DNA from: a virus
DNA length: 34,013 bases
Virus record (IMG/VR): IMGVR_UViG_3300027509_000029
Direction: 5' to 3' (one strand)
Below, piece by piece: positions 1,824 to 34,013 of this stretch. Positions within the stretch are counted from its first letter, which is position 1. Each line of letters opens with the position of its first letter. A model generated the notes under the pieces. That model was not told where the DNA came from. It did no database searches and saw only the letters and a program-made list of their open reading frames with translations. The position numbers and the translations under genes are program-made.

Positions 1824-2069
1824 TCATCTCATCCCCGCCAACTCATCAACACCATCAGCGAGCGATCTCGCAGCCGCAGCATCCTCATCAGCATATCGAG
1901 CTAGCTCAGCATCAATGACAGCCAGCTCACGCTCTATCTCAGCATCCGTCATATCATCACTGTTATTGCAAAGATAATCCTGCAAATTAATCAACGATTT
2001 AACCGCAGCTTTCCGCTCTTCACTATCTACTACTATTTTATTCACTACTTTTTTCACTACTTTTTTCAT
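1824..2069 (-). CDS. Hypothetical acidic protein
   Basis: 81-aa ORF. Its start overlaps the stop of the upstream ATPase/GNAT gene by 4 nt (translational coupling). Confidence 0.6.
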   Translation of the reverse strand: MKKVVKKVVNKIVVDSEERKAAVKSLINLQDYLCNNSDDMTDAEIERELAVIDAELARYADEDAAAARSLADGVDELAGMR

Positions 2070-3172
2070 GTCTTATCTACTCCTATGGTTAACATGTACT
2101 CCTCAAACTCCTCATCACTCGGTATTACAAACTCATGCGATGTGCATACCCTCTCTGCATGCTTGAGCATATGCGCAGTAGTCTCTTTCGATTCGGCACC
2201 ACGCTCGCTCTTATAGTCCGTTCGTAGTTTGCGATTCTTAGATGTTGGCCTCCAAAAAATCGAATTTTCATGGTGCATACTCACAGCAACATTAGCTGCC
2301 TTAGAAAAATATCGACAACCACTCTCTACGATCAATCCCGCTACGGCATCATGAAAAGCATTGCCGATGCCCATGCCTTGATACTCAGGCAATACAACCA
2401 AACGATGCCCCCGCCAACCATTTTTAATATTGCGATGGGGCATTGCGATCACTGCTAAAAAAGCAACCGCTTTACCATCCATCAGCGCAGTCCAGGCATT
2501 TGCCGATTTATTAATAGCGCTATCTAGATAATGATGTCGGCTGAAACTCGGCCAAACCGCTTGCGCATCACACGGTCGGATCTTGAGAGACAACGGTTCA
2601 TGCCATCGCCGAAGGCACCTCCTTGCCGAAGCATCCAACCACTCACCCGCATCAACATCATAGATATGATCAGCTCGTAGGTACTCGCACACATCCACAT
2701 GACATGTCGCTACTACTAGATTACTCAGACCAGCTCTATTAATAGAGTGACACAATGCTCGCGCCGTTTGACGATCTACCAAACTCGTAAACTCATCTAT
2801 AAACTCAGAGCCGCGACTCAGAGCAACAGCAACCTCGGCACGATGACACTCACCGTTAGAAACTGTATTAAGAGTTCGACGCCATGTCGGTATAGAGCGC
2901 AATCCTGCTACTGTCAGCCAGTGCTCAGCATCCAACCCCGACTCAAACAATGTCCATATGGGCACATCACGATCCAAAACCGTCTCAACCATCCCCCACG
3001 ATCTCAGAATCGTCGATTTGCCACTGCCTGAGGCTCCCACTACGATTACTACGCCCTCAGGTGGTCTTGTCGGTATCTCTATCGCAGACTCAACATGATC
3101 AGCACTGAGATCATATTTTGCGAAAATCTCAGCACCATCACCACCATCACGCCCAGGCATCTCAGTACTCAA
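2066..3172 (-). CDS. ABC-type ATPase domain fused to GNAT acetyltransferase domain
   Basis: 368-aa ORF. N-terminal half: Walker A GASGSGKST, signature-like VSNGECHRAEV, Walker B EFIDEF followed by SLVD, and an H-loop-like ATCH. C-terminal half: GNAT motif A-like LVVLPEYQGMGIGNAF. Confidence 0.7.
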   Translation of the reverse strand: MSTEMPGRDGGDGAEIFAKYDLSADHVESAIEIPTRPPEGVVIVVGASGSGKSTILRSWGMVETVLDRDVPIWTLFESGLDAEHWLTVAGLRSIPTWRRTLNTVSNGECHRAEVAVALSRGSEFIDEFTSLVDRQTARALCHSINRAGLSNLVVATCHVDVCEYLRADHIYDVDAGEWLDASARRCLRRWHEPLSLKIRPCDAQAVWPSFSRHHYLDSAINKSANAWTALMDGKAVAFLAVIAMPHRNIKNGWRGHRLVVLPEYQGMGIGNAFHDAVAGLIVESGCRYFSKAANVAVSMHHENSIFWRPTSKNRKLRTDYKSERGAESKETTAHMLKHAERVCTSHEFVIPSDEEFEEYMLTIGVDKT

Positions 3173-26925: not shown

Positions 26926-27106
26926 GAGCATTGAGAGAGTCACTATCAGACGATCTGACGGTGAATATGTGACAGTGCATGTGAGCCATAAAGAGTTGAT
27001 AGACGGCTCTTATCTGATGGAGGGGGACAGGTTTATCGGTGTTAATGTAATGGATGCTGATGACAGACGGTTTTTTAGGCAGGTGGATGAGTTATTGGTG
27101 CTTTAA
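26912..27106 (+). CDS. Hypothetical small protein
   Basis: 64-codon ORF with a TTG start. It overlaps the end of the HNH gene and is followed by a strong terminator. Confidence 0.35.
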   Translation: MLLTESIERVTIRRSDGEYVTVHVSHKELIDGSYLMEGDRFIGVNVMDADDRRFFRQVDELLVL

Positions 27107-27131
27107 ATTGCCTAGCCGCAATGATGAAAAC

Positions 27132-27160
27132 AAAAATGCCCTCTCTTGAGGGCATTTTTT
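27132..27160. terminator. Bidirectional rho-independent terminator between the late operon and int
   Basis: Stem ATGCCCTC / GAGGGCAT with a 4-nt loop, flanked by A5 upstream and T6 downstream. Confidence 0.85.
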
Positions 27161-27187
27161 ATGGTTGGATGATGGTTTGGATTGTAG

Positions 27188-28342
27188 CTAGAATAGATCA
27201 GTAAATACCGACTCTGCTTTTTTACCGATCACGATATTTCGATCATATGGTTTAGAGTATCTGCGACTCGACTTTGGGTCGTTATGGCCCATCATGGTCT
27301 GTATTTCCTCTTGTGTGAATCCCGCACGGTGCAGACGATTGGCGAACGTATGTCTGAGATGATGCGGCACGGCTGGTTCTGCATGGTTCTGCGGGTTTAA
27401 TGCAGTGTCTAATTTTTCATCGGAATTTACATCAGTCTTACTGCATGCGCTGCGCCACCAGTACAAGCAGTGGTGGAGGTGGTTGTCATTTTTTTGATTT
27501 TGAAATACCCATTTTGAGTGTGCATTGGGTGCTGCCTTGCGGCGTTTGAGGATAGCCGCCACTTCGGGGAACATGTGTATTTCGATTGCTCTCTTTGTCT
27601 TGTAGTGCTTGAGCGTGATGATGTCTTCTGCCTCGTCGATATTAGCCCACGTCATTTTGCAGATATCCATATATCTTGCGCCTGTGTAATTCAGCATGTC
27701 AAAAAGATCGACATGGAGTGTCGTTGTAATAGCTGCTCGGATATCTCTGATTTCGCCATCGGTTAGAACACGCTGCCGTCCAGGGCCGATTTTTATTGTC
27801 GGGAAACCCGTCATCTTAGAGTGTGGTGAATTTTTGCCATCGCCAGCAGCGTAATTCATGAGTCTCTTGATGATCTGAAATTCGTCGTGGATCGTGGAGG
27901 CTTTATATCCCTCTCGTACTCGTTGTCTGTAGTGTGCTGTGAGCGTTGCGGCATTGATCTCACTCATATTAGTGATTTGCAGCGGCTGCACAGTGACAGC
28001 GGTGGGTTGGTTTGGGTTGCTTGGATCGTGTAGATAACGTGTAGCATTTGACGGTGAGAGAGTGCCTTGAATTCGATCACACACGCCGCTCATCTGTTGG
28101 TGATAGATGGCGCTTAGTACAGGTGGCGTGTGATCTTCAAGATACGCTGTGATCGTGTCTTTGAGAGTGATTTCCGATGCTGTGGGATTGTGACGCTCAT
28201 CCCTCAGTTTTGTTCTGAGCTGCCGCTCTATAGCCTCGGCTTCCGCTTTGATTCGAGTGCCTGAGCTACGCTCGTATGGGACACCATTTTCGGTAAATTT
28301 GATGTACCAATTCTTTGAGTTGGCTTTTTTGATGACGCTCAT
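27188..28342 (-). CDS. int: Tyrosine recombinase (phage integrase)
   Basis: 384-aa ORF. Box I: TGARYMDICKMTW. Box II: HHLRHTFANRL...MGHNDPKSSRRYSK (R..HxxR..Y). GGGAGG sits 6 nt upstream of the ATG. Confidence 0.9.
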   Translation of the reverse strand: MSVIKKANSKNWYIKFTENGVPYERSSGTRIKAEAEAIERQLRTKLRDERHNPTASEITLKDTITAYLEDHTPPVLSAIYHQQMSGVCDRIQGTLSPSNATRYLHDPSNPNQPTAVTVQPLQITNMSEINAATLTAHYRQRVREGYKASTIHDEFQIIKRLMNYAAGDGKNSPHSKMTGFPTIKIGPGRQRVLTDGEIRDIRAAITTTLHVDLFDMLNYTGARYMDICKMTWANIDEAEDIITLKHYKTKRAIEIHMFPEVAAILKRRKAAPNAHSKWVFQNQKNDNHLHHCLYWWRSACSKTDVNSDEKLDTALNPQNHAEPAVPHHLRHTFANRLHRAGFTQEEIQTMMGHNDPKSSRRYSKPYDRNIVIGKKAESVFTDLF

Positions 28343-28412
28343 GATGCACCTCCCGCTGCTGCCAGGTGGACAGCGGCGAGATGTGGCGTAACTGTAATAT
28401 TATTTGGCGGGA

Positions 28413-28813
28413 GTGTAGATAGATTTGTGGTAGCGGATGCAATGGTATAGATAGTGCACAGCGCGCTGTGGGTGGCGTTATTGTGCCTGTGCTGTGGCTG
28501 CTGTGGCTGTTGGTCTGTTGGGAGGTGTAGAGAAAATCGTAGATAGGTCGGGGTGGTGGAAATTGTAGATAGTGCTGAGGACCGCGCTACATATGGCTTT
28601 CGATGAGTTGGTGTAGGTGATTTTGACATGTTATTAAACGTTCTCTAAGTTTAGGAAAGATTCTATTGTGGCAGATTGTGCAGAGGAGTGCAGAAAGGGT
28701 GATGTTATTTGGGTCTGTGATCACATTTTAGGGCTGTGGTCCTTGTCACATATATTTGGGTTGGTAGGGGAGTGTAGAGAGTTTTTGGGATAGGTACGGG
28801 AGAGTGTAGATAG
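28413..28813 (+). promoter_or_regulatory. Field of direct (G)TGTAGA(T/G)AG repeats: candidate integrase arm-type sites / attP region
   Basis: GTGTAGATAG at 28413 and 28804. GTATAGATAG at 28445. GTGTAGAGA at 28525 and 28772. GTAGATAG at 28539. TTGTAGATAG at 28563. All are in one orientation, with a repeat-free gap at 28573-28771. Confidence 0.5.
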
Positions 28814-28972
28814 TTTGAGGGTGTTTTTGGGTGTTTTTGGGTGTGTGGCTGGGGTGTGCTGTGGTGTGCTGTGGTGGTTTTGGCAGCCGCCGCCCAGGCG
28901 CTGCGGGATGCTGCGGGAGGGTGCGCTGAGAGCGCCTGAGCGGCGCTAGCGGGGATGATGGTTAGAGGGTGG

Positions 28973-29185
28973 TTAGATGGTGGTTAGATCGTCAATGTTG
29001 GATTGTAGAGTTTGCTTTCGCTCATGTATCAACTCGTGCAAGATGCCGCGTGTGCGACATGCTGCGGGATATGATGGATCGGTGGTGGGTACGCCTTGCC
29101 ACTGCTTGTTTAATCGCTCCAGCTCTGCGACGAGTCGTTGCAGTGGCACCCTTTCGTAGAGATTGCGTGTAGTGTCGTAGTCCAT
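28973..29185 (-). CDS. Hypothetical small protein
   Basis: The track ORF (to 29242) begins with TTG. The ATG at 29185 has AAGGA 7 nt upstream and gives a 70-aa product (MDYDTTRNLYERV...). Confidence 0.5.
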   Translation of the reverse strand: MDYDTTRNLYERVPLQRLVAELERLNKQWQGVPTTDPSYPAACRTRGILHELIHERKQTLQSNIDDLTTI

Positions 29186-29266
29186 GTGAGTGTCCTTGTG
29201 TGTGGGTGTGGGTGCCATTTCCCCCGCTGCCGTCCAGGCCAAGCGGGGGTGATGGTTTGGTGGTGA

Positions 29267-29752
29267 TTAGAGGGTAGCTAGATCGTTAGTCGCGATGATC
29301 TGTTCGATGATCACTACAGCTATTTTTTTAATCTGAACGAGCATGATCTGATCAGCGAATAATGTTGACTCTAAAAATTTGCTAGTCGCAACGTCACTGG
29401 CGATGTACGGCATCGCTGTTCTATCGTCATCTATCAACATCGGATAGTTGAGTTCGAATTCGCTATGATGATCGAATTCAATTTCGATTTCTTGGTTATT
29501 CGGGTCGATTGATGATGTCACTTTGACCATGAAATCAATTTCGATTTCGTTCTCGCCGAACGGATCTGCGGTGGCAGTCAGTTCGATGTAATGTATCTGA
29601 TCGCCAGGCGGCTCATCTTTTGGATAGCGATGGATTCTGCCATTGTCGGATCGGTCTATAGTGAATTGCGATGCATGCAATTCATCAGACATAAATGATG
29701 ATAAGAGCACACGTGTGTTCGCGATGTTTACACGTATAAAAGTAGTAGACAT
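29267..29752 (-). CDS. Hypothetical acidic protein
   Basis: The track ORF begins at TTG 29788. The first ATG at 29752 gives 161 aa (MSTTFIRVNIANT...). No motif recognised. Confidence 0.6.
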   Translation of the reverse strand: MSTTFIRVNIANTRVLLSSFMSDELHASQFTIDRSDNGRIHRYPKDEPPGDQIHYIELTATADPFGENEIEIDFMVKVTSSIDPNNQEIEIEFDHHSEFELNYPMLIDDDRTAMPYIASDVATSKFLESTLFADQIMLVQIKKIAVVIIEQIIATNDLATL

Positions 29753-29918
29753 ATTGATATTTTTAATTTGCAGTGCCGAATCTGGCAACGGCCAAACTAT
29801 AATCAGGATGCCATTTTGATTATGAGGTATAGTTCAGGTTTTCTGCAAAAAACGGCAAAATAATGCATAATTTCAGGGTACTGAAAATGTTTGATGGTGT
29901 CTGTGATTCAATGCGGGT

Positions 29919-30215
29919 TTATTGTGATTTGTGGTGGTCCTGAGAGTCTGGTGGGGCTGGTGGTGTTGTTTTTGCTTGCTGTGGTAGCGAGGTGAGATGG
30001 TAATGCTCGCAGTGGACGCACAGGTACGGGTTCTGATATGCACGGTTAATGGCTTCTGCAAAGCGTGTGGCCGCTTTAGCACTCACGAACAGTCTCTTAC
30101 CGCTTCGTGGGCAGGTCTGATCTGCTGGCGGTTTTCTGAACTGTTTAGGCAATGATTTAAAAATCCTGTCTTTTTTGCTGTATTTCGAGCGTTTGGGCAT
30201 CGGTATAATCTCCAT
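29919..30215 (-). CDS. Small basic Cys/His (zinc-ribbon-like) protein, possible DNA-binding regulator
   Basis: 98-aa ORF. The second ATG (30200) has GGAGA 10 nt upstream. Basic N-terminus (PKRSKYSKKDRIFKSLPKQFRK), CP...YLCVHCEHYHLTS motif, Pro/Gln-rich tail. It is the first leftward gene next to the regulatory block. Confidence 0.6.
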   Translation of the reverse strand: MEIIPMPKRSKYSKKDRIFKSLPKQFRKPPADQTCPRSGKRLFVSAKAATRFAEAINRAYQNPYLCVHCEHYHLTSLPQQAKTTPPAPPDSQDHHKSQ

Positions 30216-30305
30216 GTATAGAGATTATTTAGGGACTGAGAGGAGGGGAGAGGAGAGGAGGATACCTGGCAGCAGAGCGTGGCAAAAGAGCGTGTTATTT
30301 TGATT

Positions 30306-30412
30306 ATGCTGAGAGCACGCTTGTATTATGGTGGGGGACTATGCTCAGATCATGGTTGTATTATGTTATTGACCATGGTTGTATTATGTTATTTTGATTA
30401 TGCTCAGAGCAT
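30306..30412. promoter_or_regulatory. Left cluster of 13-bp palindromic operator-like sites ATGCTC(W)GAGCAT
   Basis: ATGCTGAGAGCAC at 30306-30318 and ATGCTCAGATCAT at 30341-30353 are imperfect. ATGCTCAGAGCAT at 30400-30412 is perfect. Confidence 0.5.
30369..30395 (+). promoter_or_regulatory. Candidate rightward promoter: TTGACC-N15-(TGT)TATTTT
   Basis: -35-like TTGACC at 30369-30374. Extended -10-like TGTTATTTT ends at 30395. The perfect palindromic operator at 30400 would cover the predicted start. The 15-bp spacer is short. Confidence 0.35.
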
Positions 30413-30415
30413 GCT

Positions 30416-30442
30416 TTGACCATGCTTGTACTATGTTATTTT
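30416..30442 (+). promoter_or_regulatory. Candidate rightward promoter: TTGACC-N15-(TGT)TATTTT
   Basis: TTGACC at 30416-30421 and TGTTATTTT ending at 30442. Same architecture as 30369-30395. Confidence 0.35.
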
Positions 30443-30470
30443 GGGTTGTGCAGCGCTGCGGGGGCTGAAT

Positions 30471-30608
30471 ATGGCCAGGTGTCTCAGCGGCATTGTGCAA
30501 GATTTTTTCTGTGGGGTGGGTCTCGGTTGGGGGGTGTCCCACGTCTCACTATGCAATCTTGTAGTCCTTGTCACACTTTGGCAAAATGTAAACCACTTAT
30601 CAAAATAA
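30471..30608 (+). CDS. Possible 45-aa hydrophobic peptide (very tentative)
   Basis: ATG at 30471 with GGGGG 6 nt upstream, about 20 nt downstream of the candidate promoter at 30416-30442. Product: MARCLSGIVQDFFCGVGLGWGVSHVSLCNLVVLVTLWQNVNHLSK. It contains a copy of the GTCCTTGTCACA box that is non-coding elsewhere, which argues against a real gene. Confidence 0.2.
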   Translation: MARCLSGIVQDFFCGVGLGWGVSHVSLCNLVVLVTLWQNVNHLSK

Positions 30609-30683
30609 AATAGTAAAATAAAATAGTCATAACATGATCTAAATCACATCCCCATCAATTATCTAAAAGTGTGACGTAATCAT

Positions 30684-30710
30684 TTGACATTATTGAGATC
30701 ATGTTATTTT
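30684..30710 (+). promoter_or_regulatory. Candidate rightward promoter: TTGACA-N15-(TGT)TATTTT
   Basis: TTGACA at 30684-30689 and ATGTTATTTT at 30701-30710. Confidence 0.3.
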
Positions 30711-31139
30711 GGATAGGTTTCTGTTCTTGCTCTATGTTTAGAGAGAACGGGATTTTTCTATATAAATCAAGGGTTTAGCAGCGCTGCGAGGGTAGGTATC
30801 TATAAAACTATCTATAGTCTATCTCGAAAAGGTGCAGAATATTTCTGGCGAGTTTGTGAGGTGATCGAAATAATGTGGATGATCTGTAATGGTTAAGATA
30901 ATGTTATTTTTGATTGGTTGATCACAGTGTGTAGACTCTCTCTGATATTTGCGGTCCTTGTCACATAGTTGGGAGATAGTTGGTATGATTCTTGCTAGTA
31001 AAAATAAAATGGTCATAAAATGGTGGGGATGGTCGGATGATTGACTATGTGAGACAGTTCAGAGAATAATCTGAAAAATGCTGTATAATTATAGGCGGTG
31101 GGAGGGCTGGATTAAAAAAAATAACATAGCCAGTAATAG

Positions 31140-31159
31140 TACTGTATGGATTTACAGTA
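31140..31159. promoter_or_regulatory. LexA (SOS) box 1: TACTGTATGGATTTACAGTA
   Basis: 17/20 match to the E. coli-type consensus TACTGTATATATATACAGTA. Both CTGT and ACAG arms and the N8 spacing are intact. Confidence 0.75.
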
Positions 31160-31188
31160 CGACCTGATTTTGCCCATGACAAAATACA

Positions 31189-31204
31189 TGCAAGAATCGT
31201 GCCA
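31189..31204 (-). promoter_or_regulatory. Sigma-54 (RpoN) promoter, proximal copy: TGGCACGATTCTTGCA on the minus strand
   Basis: Exact match to TGGCACG-N4-TTGCW. GG and GC are separated by the canonical spacing. Confidence 0.7.
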
Positions 31205-31234
31205 AGATTGTAAAATTGCCCATGACAAAATACA

Positions 31235-31250
31235 TGCAAGAATCGTGCCA
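31235..31250 (-). promoter_or_regulatory. Sigma-54 (RpoN) promoter, middle copy
   Basis: Identical TGGCACGATTCTTGCA on the minus strand, 46 bp from the proximal copy. Confidence 0.7.
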
Positions 31251-31281
31251 AGATTGTAAAATTGCCCATGACAAAAATACA

Positions 31282-31297
31282 TGCAAGAATCGTGCCA
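31282..31297 (-). promoter_or_regulatory. Sigma-54 (RpoN) promoter, distal copy
   Basis: Identical TGGCACGATTCTTGCA on the minus strand, 47 bp from the middle copy. Confidence 0.7.
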
Positions 31298-31334
31298 ACA
31301 TTATAAAATTGCCCATGTTATTTTTACAAGAGAA

Positions 31335-31354
31335 TACTGTATGGATTTACAGTA
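31335..31354. promoter_or_regulatory. LexA (SOS) box 2: TACTGTATGGATTTACAGTA
   Basis: The same 20-mer as box 1. Confidence 0.75.
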
Positions 31355-31355
31355 G

Positions 31356-31384
31356 TTGATTGCTGTATGGATTTACAGTAGTAT
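31356..31384 (+). promoter_or_regulatory. Candidate LexA-repressed rightward sigma-70 promoter TTGATT-N17-TAGTAT
   Basis: -35-like element at 31356-31361 and -10-like at 31379-31384. LexA box 3 occupies the whole spacer and overlaps both hexamers. Confidence 0.4.
31361..31380. promoter_or_regulatory. LexA (SOS) box 3: TGCTGTATGGATTTACAGTA
   Basis: Same 16-bp core CTGTATGGATTTACAG. Its centre is 26 bp from box 2. Confidence 0.7.
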
Positions 31385-31707
31385 CCGAAATTGCCGATGA
31401 CAATTAGTCGTAGCACAGAACGATATAAGAGTGTTGGAAATAATGTTATTTTTGTGAGATTGTTGGCATTATAGGGGGTTTGTGACAAGGACCGCAGCGC
31501 TGTAAGGTATTATTTTATTTTGAGAAGTGGTCCGCAAATACGCGGGATTTGAATTGACAATATTGAAAAATTTTGTTTCAAGGCGTGAAATAATGTTTCC
31601 TCAGAGGAAAGTATGTCATTTAGGATGCAATTATGTCATTTAGGATGACATTTTAAAATAACACAGTCAAAGATAGTCAAAGATAGTCCCTGCCATTGCG
31701 CTGCTGC

Positions 31708-31753
31708 CATGCTCTGAGCATAGTCCCTGCCATGCTCTGAGCATAGTCCCTGC
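31708..31753. promoter_or_regulatory. Right cluster: 2 x 23-bp tandem repeat, each with the perfect palindrome ATGCTCTGAGCAT
   Basis: The unit CATGCTCTGAGCATAGTCCCTGC occurs at 31708-31730 and 31731-31753. The palindromes are at 31709-31721 and 31732-31744. Confidence 0.5.
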
Positions 31754-31780
31754 CAGGCGCGCTCTTGTGGTGATGGATGG

Positions 31781-31830
31781 CTCAGGATAGCTTAGGATAG
31801 CTTAGGATAGCTTAGGATAGCTTAGGATGG
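31781..31830. repeat. 5 x 10-bp tandem repeat CT(T/C)AGGAT(A/G)G (iteron-like)
   Basis: CTCAGGATAG, CTTAGGATAG x3, CTTAGGATGG. The 10-bp period places all copies on one helix face. Confidence 0.9.
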
Positions 31831-31940
31831 CTTTTGTTGAAATTTTCGGTGGTGGTGGGTTCAATCCACTGCACATGCACAACAGCTAAATCATCTTAAT
31901 AATGAGGAAATAGACCGTTTTCTGGCATATAACCCTACAG

Positions 31941-32040
31941 TACAAATATATATATATTAAAAAAATAAAATATCTCTACATATATACTATTAAATAACGT
32001 CTATTTTATCTATTTTATCTATTTTTTTTATATATTATAT
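31941..32040. other. AT-rich tract with (TA)n and 3 x CTATTTTAT: candidate DNA-unwinding element of an origin
   Basis: Almost pure A/T over about 100 bp. CTATTTTAT occurs at 32001, 32010 and 32019. The tract lies between the iteron-like repeats and the helicase gene terminator. Confidence 0.4.
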
Positions 32041-32082
32041 AGACGAAATAGAGCTATCTCAAATCAACATCTCAGATAACGA

Positions 32083-32103
32083 CAAAAAGCCCAAAAAAGG
32101 GCT
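32083..32103 (-). terminator. Rho-independent terminator after the helicase gene
   Basis: Minus strand reads AGCCC-TTTTTT-GGGCT followed by TTTTT, 34 nt after the stop codon. Confidence 0.65.
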
Positions 32104-32136
32104 CTTGTCTTACCATCAAATTTAACACAATATCCA

Positions 32137-33837
32137 TCAAAATTGCAGGATATTATCCTCATCTGCACCATTACCGCCGTCCAGGCGGCGACTACCACCA
32201 TCCTCATCAATATCATTGTAGATCTCACCAATGTGGCCCTTACGAAACTTCCATCCTCGTATACGATTAAGATTGCCACTGTACGCATTGGACACATCTA
32301 TACCACGCTGCACCAATTGCTTTTTTAATTCCTTGTCACCACTTGAATACAACCGTCGCTCTACACACCACTCAGTATATTGACTCAAAAAGTCGGTTAA
32401 CTTGATTGTAGCTCTACCATCCTCAACGATTGCAGAGTCAATGAACGTTCCTAACTTATCCTCACCACTTCGCCACATTGCAGTATCTACCTTCACAACT
32501 TTAGGAATATCAAACTGTTGACCATTAGCCATGTATGCAATCGCACCTGCAATGCACCAATTTAGAATCCCTGATTGCTCAAACGTTAATTTCTTACTGA
32601 TCAACTCACGATCTTTCTCAGCATCACTGAAAACTCGATTGAAATTCAGCAATACCAAACGCCGCCATATACCACCATCAGTACAAGCAACCGACGGCAC
32701 GTAATTAGTATTAAGAATCATCGTTGCCACGCACGTCAATTCAAACGGCTCACCACGAATTGGCCTGGCAGCCATCCCCTCATCCGAATCAACCATCCGC
32801 TTCACGATTGTATCGTCCAACGCATTGCTAGACTTTCGACCATCAGAACTACCCAACTCGTTCATGATGATCATGCGAACACCTTTCAACATTGCTAGAG
32901 CATATTGCTTTTCTGATGTAGAGGCACCTGTGATCACCTCAGGACTTACCGACGCTTTATAACCACCATCGCCAGCTTTACCTAAAATCGGCTCTAAAAC
33001 TTTCGCAAATGTCGATTTACCATTGCTACCATCACCACAAAAAAAGAACATTTTCTCTTTTGAATTACCGACCAGGCAACTGCCTGCAATCTGTTGCAAC
33101 AGATCAACTTTCGTCTCATCACCTTCCATGATCTCAAGCAATGTCTGTTGCCATATTGGACACTCAGCACCATCCTCATACTCCACCTCAGATGATTTTA
33201 ACAACATGTATTCCGGCTTATCTTTAATAAATTTGCCATCTCGCAAATCAATCACACCATTTGCCACACCAAAAAATTGTCCCTTACGATCAAACTCATT
33301 GTAATGAATCGGTATACCACTCAATGTCGCCGCCACATCAATAGAGCGCTCCTTAGTCCCTTTATTAGATGATGCTGTAATCCATGCTCTGACACGCTTG
33401 AGCATCTTTTGTAGCATCGCCTTAGCAACCCTAGTACGCTCTGCTAACGGCGAGTCATCGCCCTTAGCGACAGCAGGGAGTGATACGTTCATACCTTCCA
33501 ATTCGTACCGATATTTTTTAATCGAATCAATAACCGATTTATATTTTCTCTCTATCTCAGAGTCTGTATTGAGGTTCCATTTCTGATTAGCCCAATATGC
33601 CCATTGTTTTAACTCAATGACGTATCGCACCTCATCATCAAACGATTTTACAAAAACCTCAGCATTGCCCGTTTCAGTCAATATCTCATCAAACTCAATA
33701 TCAAGCTCATTAAGCTTTTCCAATATCTCAATAACACCCGACCCCACTAACGCCTCTTCATTAGCTTTCTCTTGCCGACGCTCTTCTATTAAATCCTGCA
33801 ACTCCTCAGTCGTCATTTCCTCTCTGTTTTTAGTCAT
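32137..33837 (-). CDS. SF3 replicative helicase (P4-alpha / poxvirus D5 family C-terminal domain)
   Basis: 566-aa ORF with GGGAGG upstream. D5_N-like TGNAEVFVKSF...WAYWANQKW. Walker A: FFCGDGSNGKSTF. Walker B-like: VRMIIMNELG. The downstream NTNYVP...GGIWRRL pattern is typical of the P4 primase C-terminal domain. Confidence 0.8.
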   Translation of the reverse strand: MTKNREEMTTEELQDLIEERRQEKANEEALVGSGVIEILEKLNELDIEFDEILTETGNAEVFVKSFDDEVRYVIELKQWAYWANQKWNLNTDSEIERKYKSVIDSIKKYRYELEGMNVSLPAVAKGDDSPLAERTRVAKAMLQKMLKRVRAWITASSNKGTKERSIDVAATLSGIPIHYNEFDRKGQFFGVANGVIDLRDGKFIKDKPEYMLLKSSEVEYEDGAECPIWQQTLLEIMEGDETKVDLLQQIAGSCLVGNSKEKMFFFCGDGSNGKSTFAKVLEPILGKAGDGGYKASVSPEVITGASTSEKQYALAMLKGVRMIIMNELGSSDGRKSSNALDDTIVKRMVDSDEGMAARPIRGEPFELTCVATMILNTNYVPSVACTDGGIWRRLVLLNFNRVFSDAEKDRELISKKLTFEQSGILNWCIAGAIAYMANGQQFDIPKVVKVDTAMWRSGEDKLGTFIDSAIVEDGRATIKLTDFLSQYTEWCVERRLYSSGDKELKKQLVQRGIDVSNAYSGNLNRIRGWKFRKGHIGEIYNDIDEDGGSRRLDGGNGADEDNILQF

Positions 33838-33869: not shown

Positions 33870-33963
33870 ACTACTACCTACTACCAACTACCTACTACCA
33901 ACTACCTACTACCTACTACCAACTACCAACTACCTACTACCTACTACCTACTACCTACTACCA
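33870..33963. repeat. Tandem heptamer array, 13 x ACTACC(T/A), read as (A/T)GGTAGT on the coding strand
   Basis: Units start at 33873, 33880 and so on to 33957. The seventh-base pattern is T A T A T T A A T T T T A. Units 3-13 recur at 1-77 because of the terminal overlap. The array fills the gap between the AEP primase stop (83 = 33969) and the helicase start (33837). Confidence 0.95.
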
Positions 33964-34013
33964 AACCATCACGCCGATTTTTTCCGCTTAGCTATCAATT
34001 GCTCTATCGCATC
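33887..34013. repeat. Terminal overlap, copy 2 (identical to 1-127)
   Basis: See copy 1. Confidence 0.95.

Follow-up and report, generated by a model that had tools for sequence, protein, structure and literature searches.

The contig IMGVR_UViG_3300027509_000029 (referred to as the window) is a complete, circularly closed phage-like contig of 34,013 bases with a terminal overlap of 127 bp (bases 1-127 being the same as 33887-34013), which gives a true genome length of approximately 33,886 bp once the overlap is removed. The subject of this analysis is the block at 30216-32136, which lies between the start of a small gene, orf98 (30215), and the stop codon of a primase-helicase gene (32137) and which, as originally predicted, occupies 1,921 bp (5.7% of the contig). 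We lean, by a small balance of probability, towards reading this block as a composite non-coding control region made up of a replication origin, a LexA-gated sigma-54 cassette and a set of binding-site modules. The surrounding genes are arranged as follows:

3.5 to 26.9 kb, plus strand: genes including those for the large terminase and an HNH endonuclease
28342 to 27188, minus strand: tyrosine integrase (domain scan)
left of the block, minus strand: orf98, orf173, orf89 and the doubtful orf96, on the same strand as the helicase
32137..33837, minus strand: primase-helicase (Pfam D5_N, 5e-23; DUF5906, 7e-10), the presumed initiator of the adjoining origin
3399 to 83, minus strand: early operon, wrapping into the primase-helicase (33837 to 32137; Pfam domain scan)

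Judged by database searches, the phage is remote from cultured phages. No megablast or blastn match to the block was found in 50,697 phage records or 72,556 plasmids, no tblastn match to the portal and the primase-like protein was found in isolate phages (50,697 phage records), and a helicase scan of the species genome collection gave one weak, unrelated match. The motif-pair and operator patterns of the block had 0 matches in IMG/VR and 4 in the metagenome collection, the latter being unrelated and at chance level. Only three relatives of the primase-helicase were found among 5.8 billion proteins (45-61% identity), and its best solved homolog is PriRep5 of the Staphylococcus aureus pathogenicity island (SaPI) SaPI5 (7OLA, E 5e-11). 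An independent JGI contig from another sample (locus L076) is 100% identical across 28895-33378. In an ENA assembly of the same phage (L003) the 46-bp sigma-54 unit is present in 2.2 rather than 3.2 copies and the iterons in 4.9 rather than 5.9, which reflects either population copy-number variation or assembly collapse.

Exactly four open reading frames (ORFs) of 60-74 codons were found in the gap (six-frame ORF list), as had been stated previously:

30416-30613, plus strand
30426-30608, plus strand
30819-31016, minus strand
31045-31269, minus strand, passing through the 46-bp repeats

The original prediction had seen no convincing ribosome-binding site at these ORFs, and no Shine-Dalgarno-like sequence was found at any of the four, the helicase having GGGAGG. 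Their codon-usage scores range from -0.26 to +0.16, compared with +0.08 to +0.39 for the training genes and up to +0.48 for the other small genes of the phage. No Pfam or PHROG match was obtained for any of them. A profile search for ordinary protein genes, which had been suggested as a way to overturn the earlier view of the block, came back empty (six-frame Pfam scan of 30150-32200), and tblastn queries made from all ORFs of the relatives' loci detected no gene remnants in 28343-32136. Within the reach of profile and codon tests, the block is non-coding. It is very improbable that it hides unrecognisable protein genes or that it is functionless, decayed pseudogene DNA. The four ORFs would suit this explanation, as would the neighbouring orf98 and orf173, which are orphans with poor or average codon scores; however, it is opposed by the near-zero or negative codon scores and by the missing ribosome-binding sites, profile matches and gene remnants. 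Moreover, the 46-bp repeat changes reading frame with every unit, and the precise palindromes and conserved islands of the block argue for selection on DNA sites.

Repeated 10-mers cover 42.7% of the bases of the block, compared with a mean of 8.4% (standard deviation 3.3, maximum 15.6) in other 1.9-kb windows of the genome. All of the motif families listed in the original prediction are present where it had placed them and are concentrated in the block. There are seven copies of ATGTTATTTT in the block and one elsewhere in the genome, three copies of GTCCTTGTCACA with a further one at 28739, two full copies and one partial copy of GCAGCGCTGC, and three perfect and two degenerate copies of ATGCTCNGAGCAT. 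The tandem repeats of 20, 10, 23 and 10 bp were recovered, as was the AT-rich tract (31944-32043), which at 90% AT is the maximum of the genome. Three elements placed side by side, namely an origin, a LexA/sigma-54 cassette and repeated modules, describe the block better than a single hub.

A predicted LexA/sigma-54 cassette

Read along the minus strand, the cassette begins with two SOS boxes, continues with a sigma-70-like -35/-10 pair and three sigma-54 promoters, and ends with a third SOS box; it points left, toward orf98 and the integrase. Its predicted components are:

31335..31380, either strand: two LexA (SOS) boxes, TACTGTATGGATTTACAGTA and TGCTGTATGGATTTACAGTA, 37 and 63 nt upstream of the first sigma-54 box
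31300..31329, minus strand: sigma-70-like promoter TTGTAA-18-TATAAT (10/12), its -10 element made by the variant third repeat unit
31170..31317, minus strand: 46-bp x3.2 tandem repeat with three perfect sigma-54 promoters, TGGCACGATTCTTGCA (repeat and motif scans)
31189-31204, 31235-31250 and 31282-31297, minus strand: sigma-54 boxes, with inferred starts at ~31178, 31224 and 31271
31140..31159, either strand: third LexA box, 32 nt downstream of the promoter-proximal sigma-54 box, at ~+21 to +36
31000..31180, minus strand: 5' part of the predicted sigma-54 transcript, moderately structured in its first ~180 nt (fold z = -3.8)

Both the three SOS boxes (CTGTATGGATTTACAG at 31142, 31337 and 31363) and the 46-bp sigma-54 repeats (TGGCACGATTCTTGCA three times on the minus strand) of the original prediction were found again. 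The three LexA boxes are identical (TACTGTAAATCCATACAGTA), fall within 240 bp and are near-ideal gamma-type sites, each being a CTGT-N8-ACAG palindrome with an AT-rich centre, for which the ideal form is TACTGTAT...ATACAGTA. They match 17/20 positions of TACTGTATATATATACAGTA, the LexA operator consensus of the beta/gamma-proteobacterial type. Across the whole genome CTGT-N8-ACAG sites number 4 compared with 0.5 expected, and 0 of 100 shuffles reached 4. The boxes are located at about -66 to -107 from the distal sigma-54 start and at +21 to +36 from the proximal start, and also 5 bp upstream of the sigma-70-like -35 element. The sigma-54 boxes follow TGGCAC-N5-TTGCW with GG and GC exactly 10 bp apart (three matches, 0 mismatches).

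Several observations weigh against a working promoter element of this kind. The LexA boxes are farther from the transcription starts than classical operators, and a host rpoN and a gamma-type LexA are assumed from the motifs alone. No Sigma54_activat domain was detected in the window ORFs scanned and no enhancer site for a sigma-54 activator was recognised; a search for the GAFTGA activator motif was likewise negative in six frames of the window and of every fetched locus. The activator may be host-encoded. Promoter calls are consensus matches, and the sigma-70-like count of 15 shows no excess over shuffles (10.9 +/- 3.4). The cassette is absent in the nearest relatives and is thus lineage-specific. 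Finally, the three sigma-54 boxes come from one tandem duplication and count as one event in this genome, which makes within-genome statistics weak, and for this reason other genomes were examined.

The exact sigma-54 18-mer was found in 69 IMG/VR contigs with unrelated flanks, where by our rough estimate ~1-2 would be expected by chance. These contigs usually hold further sigma-54-type boxes in tandem or inverted arrays, and a logo of 187 such neighbouring boxes carries information only at the sigma-54 core. Same-orientation arrays occur mostly in divergent intergenic regions and point into a downstream co-oriented operon, with targets that include an ArdC-like gene, a primase-helicase/DNA polymerase operon and a terminase-portal-capsid operon. 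CTGTA-N6-TACAG was found 30-60 nt upstream of TGGCAYG-N4-TTGC in 24 contigs (~13 lineages), compared with 1 for a scrambled palindrome and with 4 when the LexA box is placed 61-91 nt upstream of the sigma-54 box. A LexA box 4-34 nt downstream of the sigma-54 box was found in 29 contigs (~14 lineages); the gap lengths have peaks at 13 and 24-26 nt. In all, ~50 IMG/VR contigs from ~25 or more distinct viral lineages carry a LexA box beside a sigma-54 promoter. Several of these lineages have LexA boxes on both promoter sides (as in the window), tandem boxes, or alternating promoter/box repeats, and the cassette of the window fits both the upstream and the downstream spacing class. As the pairing recurs in many unrelated phage contigs, chance look-alikes are very unlikely; together with the excellent consensus matches, this bears out the LexA and sigma-54 site identities proposed originally. 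Leaders of 250-800 nt commonly follow the cassettes in other contigs. The genes beyond them include no family common with orf98 or its neighbours and are mostly unassigned, GP88 being seen twice.

Sigma-54-type boxes (TGGCAYG-N4-TTGCW) are also common more generally in phage non-coding DNA (IMG/VR loci L007-L075), either as tandem runs at 26-56-nt spacing or as alternating inverted pairs making ~37-bp palindromes (example arrays being L010:5660-6445, L025:650-941, L037:12675-12835 and L075:2647-2807). Many of the arrays are within 200 nt of contig ends. The 147-kb contig L010 has 43 diverse sigma-54 boxes, in both orientations, within 6.5 kb of ORF-poor DNA. LexA-coupled sigma-54 promoters were seen in loci L077-L126, L019, L032 and L037, and DnaA boxes (TTATCCACA) are often near such cassettes in L019, L032, L083, L084, L096 and L115.

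Sites of this type could also act mainly as decoys or roadblocks, titrating sigma-54 holoenzyme or LexA or insulating the origin from transcription. Sigma-54 holoenzyme makes stable closed complexes in the absence of activator (PMC4591121), which would suit such a role, as would the lack of an activator among the ORFs scanned, the 43 boxes in both orientations of L010 and the inverted, non-productive box pairs of several contigs. However, only 2-3 sites are present here, same-orientation arrays elsewhere mostly head operons and point into them, and LexA boxes at fixed helical offsets from the promoter suggest operator logic, so that a decoy function is judged quite improbable. The cassette is, with fair probability, a functional LexA/sigma-54 element, while the further proposal that it governs induction or excision is a tentative one.

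In the mechanism envisaged, LexA would occupy its boxes in the undamaged cell while sigma-54 RNA polymerase would sit silent, needing an ATPase activator. DNA damage would remove LexA, and a host activator would then fire the sigma-54 promoters. The leftward transcript would cross a ~960-nt leader into orf98, orf173, orf89 and the integrase and would collide on its way with rightward promoter-like elements; on the minus strand, the terminator scan detected nothing between the cassette and orf98. We infer binding, transcription and any role in induction or excision from the anatomy of the sequence.

Some features of this arrangement are shared with known phage systems. Phage T7 has tandem early promoters (A1-A3), and its primary origin consists of tandem promoters together with an AT-rich tract. 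Close, co-oriented promoter candidates head a transcription unit beside an AT-rich origin region here also, but they belong to a different sigma factor, would fire away from the AT tract and would be LexA-gated. In the lysogeny of phage GIL01, phage promoters are silenced by host LexA and not by a CI repressor (PMC4551915, PMC6182141). As in phages of this type (also CTXphi, and coliphage 186 tum), several high-affinity SOS boxes are found at a phage promoter here and no CI is recognisable. In contrast to GIL01, the boxes flank sigma-54 and not sigma-70 promoters, no gp7-like co-repressor was identified, the apparent target is the orf98-integrase side instead of the replication genes, and the host is presumably a proteobacterium. 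Pseudomonas phage YuA is transcribed from a host RpoN-type -24/-12 promoter (PMC10914365) and resembles the present phage in having a sigma-54-dependent promoter, but this is a single promoter in a virulent-type genome, whereas here a tandem triple is flanked by LexA boxes. A link from SOS to RtcR to sigma-54 that involves a prophage has been reported as well (PMC9879122). No description of sigma-54 arrays in phages or of LexA coupling to them was found in the literature, although their parts have precedents.

A probable replication origin next to the primase-helicase

The segment at 31600-32136 is very probably a replication origin. The following features were identified in it:

32053..32109, minus strand: helicase-operon terminator, formed by hairpin GACAAGAGCCC-UUUUUU-GGGCUUUUUGUC and then a second hairpin (terminator scan; RNA fold z = -4.4)
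32034..32062, minus strand: strong sigma-70-type promoter TTGAGA-17-TATAAT (11/12), pointing left into the AT tract and the iterons (promoter scan)
31944..32043, no strand assigned: DNA-unwinding-element candidate, 90% AT, containing TCTATTTTA x2.9 (duplex stability, AT content)
31775..31833, plus strand: iteron array GGATAGCTTA x5.9 with 10-bp phasing and the core TTAGGAT(A/G) (repeat scan)
31612..31647, plus strand: two repeats TATGTCATTTAGGATG with 20-bp spacing, carrying the iteron core TTAGGATG (motif scan)

The AT tract starts 94 bp beyond the helicase stop and is the least stable duplex of the genome (-75.9 kcal compared with a mean of -106.2 and a standard deviation of 6.4, thus 4.7 standard deviations below the mean). 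The iteron array begins ~110 bp to its left. Eight TTAGGAT(A/G) cores lie left of the tract at 10- and 20-bp phasing and one inverted core, GATAGCT, lies to its right at 32052-32058 within the second terminator hairpin. Iterons are thus found on both sides of the tract, but with weak symmetry, there being a single copy on the right. The putative origin directly follows the presumed initiator gene, and this position is kept in the relatives L001, L004 and L006 (helicases 45-61% identical), in which different iterons and an AT tract are found at the same place within an origin-like segment of ~300-800 bp. That the architecture is kept while iteron specificity co-varies is as expected for an initiator and its origin. 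The replication function proposed earlier is thus upheld for the helicase-proximal third of the block by the extreme of AT content and instability, the iterons, the terminator fold and the PriRep5 homology.

PriRep5 of SaPI is a self-loading initiator-helicase whose origin consists of iterons around an AT-rich centre directly after its own gene (PMC9371898). The segment described here resembles SaPI, phage-inducible chromosomal island and P4-type origins in lying directly after the helicase ORF and in having short iterons, an AT-rich centre, an opposite iteron and PriRep5 homology (PMC9371898). It differs from SaPI origins in that nearly all of its 10-bp-phased iterons lie to one side of the AT tract, in its unrelated sequences and in having a strong promoter candidate inside the tract; further, the element belongs to a full tailed temperate phage and not to a satellite. 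In this scheme, a self-loading primase-helicase of the SaPI-PriRep kind would bind the TTAGGAT(A/G) iterons, on one helical face, and melt the AT tract, possibly helped by the strong promoter inside it, and the early leftward operon would stop at the terminator just beyond the helicase stop. The assignment is to an ordinary, known kind of origin.

Three findings are unfavourable to it. DnaA boxes (TTWTNCACA) are absent from the block and occur once in the whole genome, IHF sites show no enrichment at the putative origin, and the change of sign in GC skew at 32 kb has terminus-like rather than origin-like polarity, or reflects composition only. The skew was found to be positive across 27000-32000 although the genes there are all on the minus strand, while in the helicase and early genes, likewise on the minus strand, it is negative, as is usual. 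The switch of sign coincides exactly with the AT tract near 32.0 kb, and the direction of transcription does not explain it.

An origin could in principle extend over the whole 1.9 kb as a replication and copy-control region, the repeats being iterons or handcuffing sites and the resemblance to LexA and sigma-54 sites incidental. The block does adjoin a helicase of the initiator type, several families of direct repeats crowd it, and its inverted palindrome clusters, ~1.35 kb apart, could pair. The replication of P4, which has the same type of primase, involves two separated iteron clusters, ori and crr. This extension is nevertheless improbable. Joint recurrence of the sigma-54 core and the LexA box in unrelated phages, where the flanks are unrelated too, is unexpected of an initiator-specific iteron, the other motif families differ in sequence from the TTAGGAT iterons, and the relatives need only ~300-800 bp for their origin-like segment.

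Repeated modules and neighbouring genes

The remaining parts of the block, 30335-31130 and 31480-31750, contain three diverged copies of a ~300-bp module, two direct (M1 and M2) and one inverted (M3):

30335..30636, plus strand: M1, with palindromes at 30306, 30342 and 30400 (left operator-like cluster) and TTGACC-N15-TGTTATTTT at 30369 and 30416; further sites are GCAGCGCTGC (30450), GTCCTTGTCACA (30564) and AAAATAAAATAGT x2 (at 30602)
30683..31022, plus strand: M2, with TTGACA-N15-TGTTATTTT (30684-30710), GCAGCGCTGC (30778), ATGTTATTTT (30901) and GGTCCTTGTCACA (30953); further sites are TGGTATGATTCTTGCT (30981, a degenerate sigma-54 box or extended -10 element) and AAAATAAAATGGTCATAAAATG (31001)
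31481..31531, minus strand: M3, inverted and partial, with islands GGTCCTTGTCACA, CAGCGCTGC and ACCACTTCTCAAAATAAAAT and inverted repeats of 24 nt (92%) and 16 nt (100%)
31665..31755, plus strand: AGTCAAAGAT x2.4, then a 23-bp x2.3 repeat in which the perfect palindrome ATGCTCTGAGCAT stands twice (31709, 31732); together they make up the right operator-like cluster and belong to inverted M3

Conserved islands of M1 align well above shuffles both with M2 and with the reverse complement of M3 (score for M3 of 166 compared with 123 +/- 8). TTGAC(C/A)-N15-TGTTATTTT, which resembles a -35 and extended -10 element, occurs three times on the plus strand and is followed by a palindrome at ~+1. The other conserved islands are GGGTTnnGCAGCGCTGCGnGGG, GGTCCTTGTCACA, AAAATAAAATrGTCATAA and the operator-like palindrome ATGCTCnGAGCAT, the last forming clusters of three and two sites ~1.35 kb apart in inverted orientation. 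The islands are probably protein-binding sites or promoters. The convergent layout of the original prediction was recovered, with promoter-like elements pointing right at 30369, 30416 and 30684 and the sigma-54 cassette pointing left.

The use of GTCCTTGTCACA as a sigma-70 -35 element was considered on either strand and rejected on account of inconsistent spacing to the -10 among copies. Its reverse complement (TGTGACAAGGAC plus four further bases) resembles a CRP site at 8-9/10 positions, with a spacer that is identical in all copies, suggesting duplication and not independent sites. Such copies are found at 28739, 30564, 30954 and 31481 (reverse complement), the reverse complement of GGTCCTTGTCACA plus 3 bases reading TGTGA-CAAGGA-C(C/T)(A/G)CA. 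Compared with TGTGA-N6-TCACA (8-9/10), this box may be a third host-factor site. Readings of the block as attP or pac/cos were rejected on position and size, and as a CRISPR on the absence of spacers.

The central ~1.37 kb is bounded by 21-bp inverted repeats, GGGACTATGCTCAGAnCATGG (30335; 31707/31730), and might be seen as an invertible or mobile segment that flips the promoters, given that the repeats are 95% identical, flank the cassette and lie 2 kb from a gene for a tyrosine recombinase. However, the orientation is the same in three assemblies, the repeats are largely tandem self-palindromes as is typical of operators, and the arms belong to the larger, diverged module copies. Inversion of this segment has hardly any probability in its favour.

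P4 CI RNA and P1/P7 c4 are known examples of immunity by antisense RNA, and the block resembles them in that its leader lacks ORFs and contains repeats complementary to one another, and in that the phage has a P4-family primase. It might accordingly be asked whether the block encodes regulatory RNAs of this kind, its inverted repeats pairing to control either orf98-int or replication. One transcript would contain the inverted repeats (24, 21 and 16 nt), promoter-like elements are convergent, the sigma-54 5' region is structured (z = -3.8) and coding signal is lacking; the 250-800-nt leaders behind cassettes in other contigs point the same way. On the other hand, and unlike P4 CI and c4, no sequence or structure match was found to Rfam, with its covariance models of known phage regulatory RNAs (c4, P4-like and others): there was no match at gathering thresholds across the genome and no tRNAs were found, and the sole match at relaxed thresholds (E up to 5, 28300-32300) was spurious (E = 3.7). 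Most of the block is also devoid of fold-energy signal, and the palindromes GCAGCGCTGC and ATGCTCnGAGCAT leave no loop and thus look like protein sites, not RNA hairpins. RNA-based immunity is considered unlikely.

The first gene downstream of the cassette is orf98 (29919..30215, minus strand), whose product is small and basic and carries the conserved motif CP-x2-GK...Y-x-C-x2-C-x3-H. It has distant zinc-ribbon-like relatives only (E ~2e-4, full HMMER) and a codon score of -0.06, and both orf98 and orf173 are orphans in a search of 5.8 billion proteins. On proximity, orf98 is a candidate partner of the module sites. Directly upstream of its start is the following tract:

30222..30262, plus strand: purine-rich GAGAG tract, pyrimidine-rich on the coding strand, with no Shine-Dalgarno

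A second repeat-dense region was seen between the integrase and orf89 (28343-28990). Its plus strand is G+T-rich, with GC skew up to +0.55, and it contains at least six GTGTAGATAG-like repeats, GGGTGTTTTT x2.6 and TGGGGTGTGC x3.7 as well as an extra GGTCCTTGTCACA/ATGTTATTT pair at 28703-28750. An overlapping ORF of 96 codons (28339-28629) scores negatively on codon usage. Instead of a gene, the region may represent regulatory DNA or attP. A 45-nt repeat of the GGTGGTTAGATCGT type (82% identical) covers the stop-codon regions of orf89 and orf173 at 28948-28992 and 29242-29286, which suggests a duplicated gene-end module.

Two further features were noted in the early operon. A run of thirteen 7-bp tandem repeats, CTACTAC/CAACTAC (GTAGTAG/GTAGTTG as read in the mRNA), at 33871-33962 (equivalent to 1-76) fills the 131-nt intercistronic gap from a primase-like 386-aa gene to the helicase start codon. 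The operon also encodes a fusion of a P-loop NTPase and a GNAT acetyltransferase (368 aa; 2066-3172, minus strand) and three small, paralog-like basic proteins of 62, 67 and 76 aa to which no family could be assigned.

Possible control without a classical repressor

The block was originally described as lying where immunity genes should be. Its position between the integrase and replication modules agrees with this, but the likeness is a positional analogy only, as the block lies at the 3' end of the leftward early operon and not at a divergent promoter. With the lambda immunity region it shares this position, two operator-like palindrome clusters ~1.35 kb apart and promoter-like elements that face each other. 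In contrast to lambda, the clusters enclose no cI/cro or other ORF with coding signal, the ORFs scanned gave no helix-turn-helix protein, and the location is the end of the early operon instead of a divergent promoter. The predicted absence of a classical cI/cro pair was borne out, as no repressor, Cro-like, helix-turn-helix or S24 peptidase match was obtained in the small or regulatory-position ORFs scanned. As to the proposed control hub relying on host factors, its LexA and sigma-54 site identities stand and an origin is added to them, while its role in lysis-lysogeny is one that we infer.

It is possible, though doubtful at present, that LexA-gated sigma-54 promoters, often tandem and with long untranslated leaders, make up a class of phage switch that is widespread and has yet to be described. 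In such a switch a CI-less temperate phage would decide induction or excision entirely via LexA, as the lock, and sigma-54 holoenzyme, a zero-leak component dependent on a stress-activated host ATPase (e.g., RtcR- or PspF-like) that responds to damage or infection; here it would be located on a gene-free 1.9-kb hub fused to the origin. As far as could be found, the LexA-flanked tandem sigma-54 cassette and its recurrence in phage metagenomes represent a variant of LexA-controlled phage regulation in an apparently undescribed combination.

The origin assignment is useful for the annotation of phages and satellites with D5/P4-type helicases. Temperate phages without a recognisable repressor are common in metagenomes, and their way of holding lysogeny is largely unexplained. 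If the proposed reading of the cassette is true, an activator-dependent silent promoter combined with the DNA-damage repressor of the host would constitute an AND gate built from host parts and a compact alternative to cI/cro, and sigma-54 and its activator would join the host factors exploited by phages. The occurrence of the pairing in ~25 or more viral lineages makes this idea testable well beyond the present uncultured phage.

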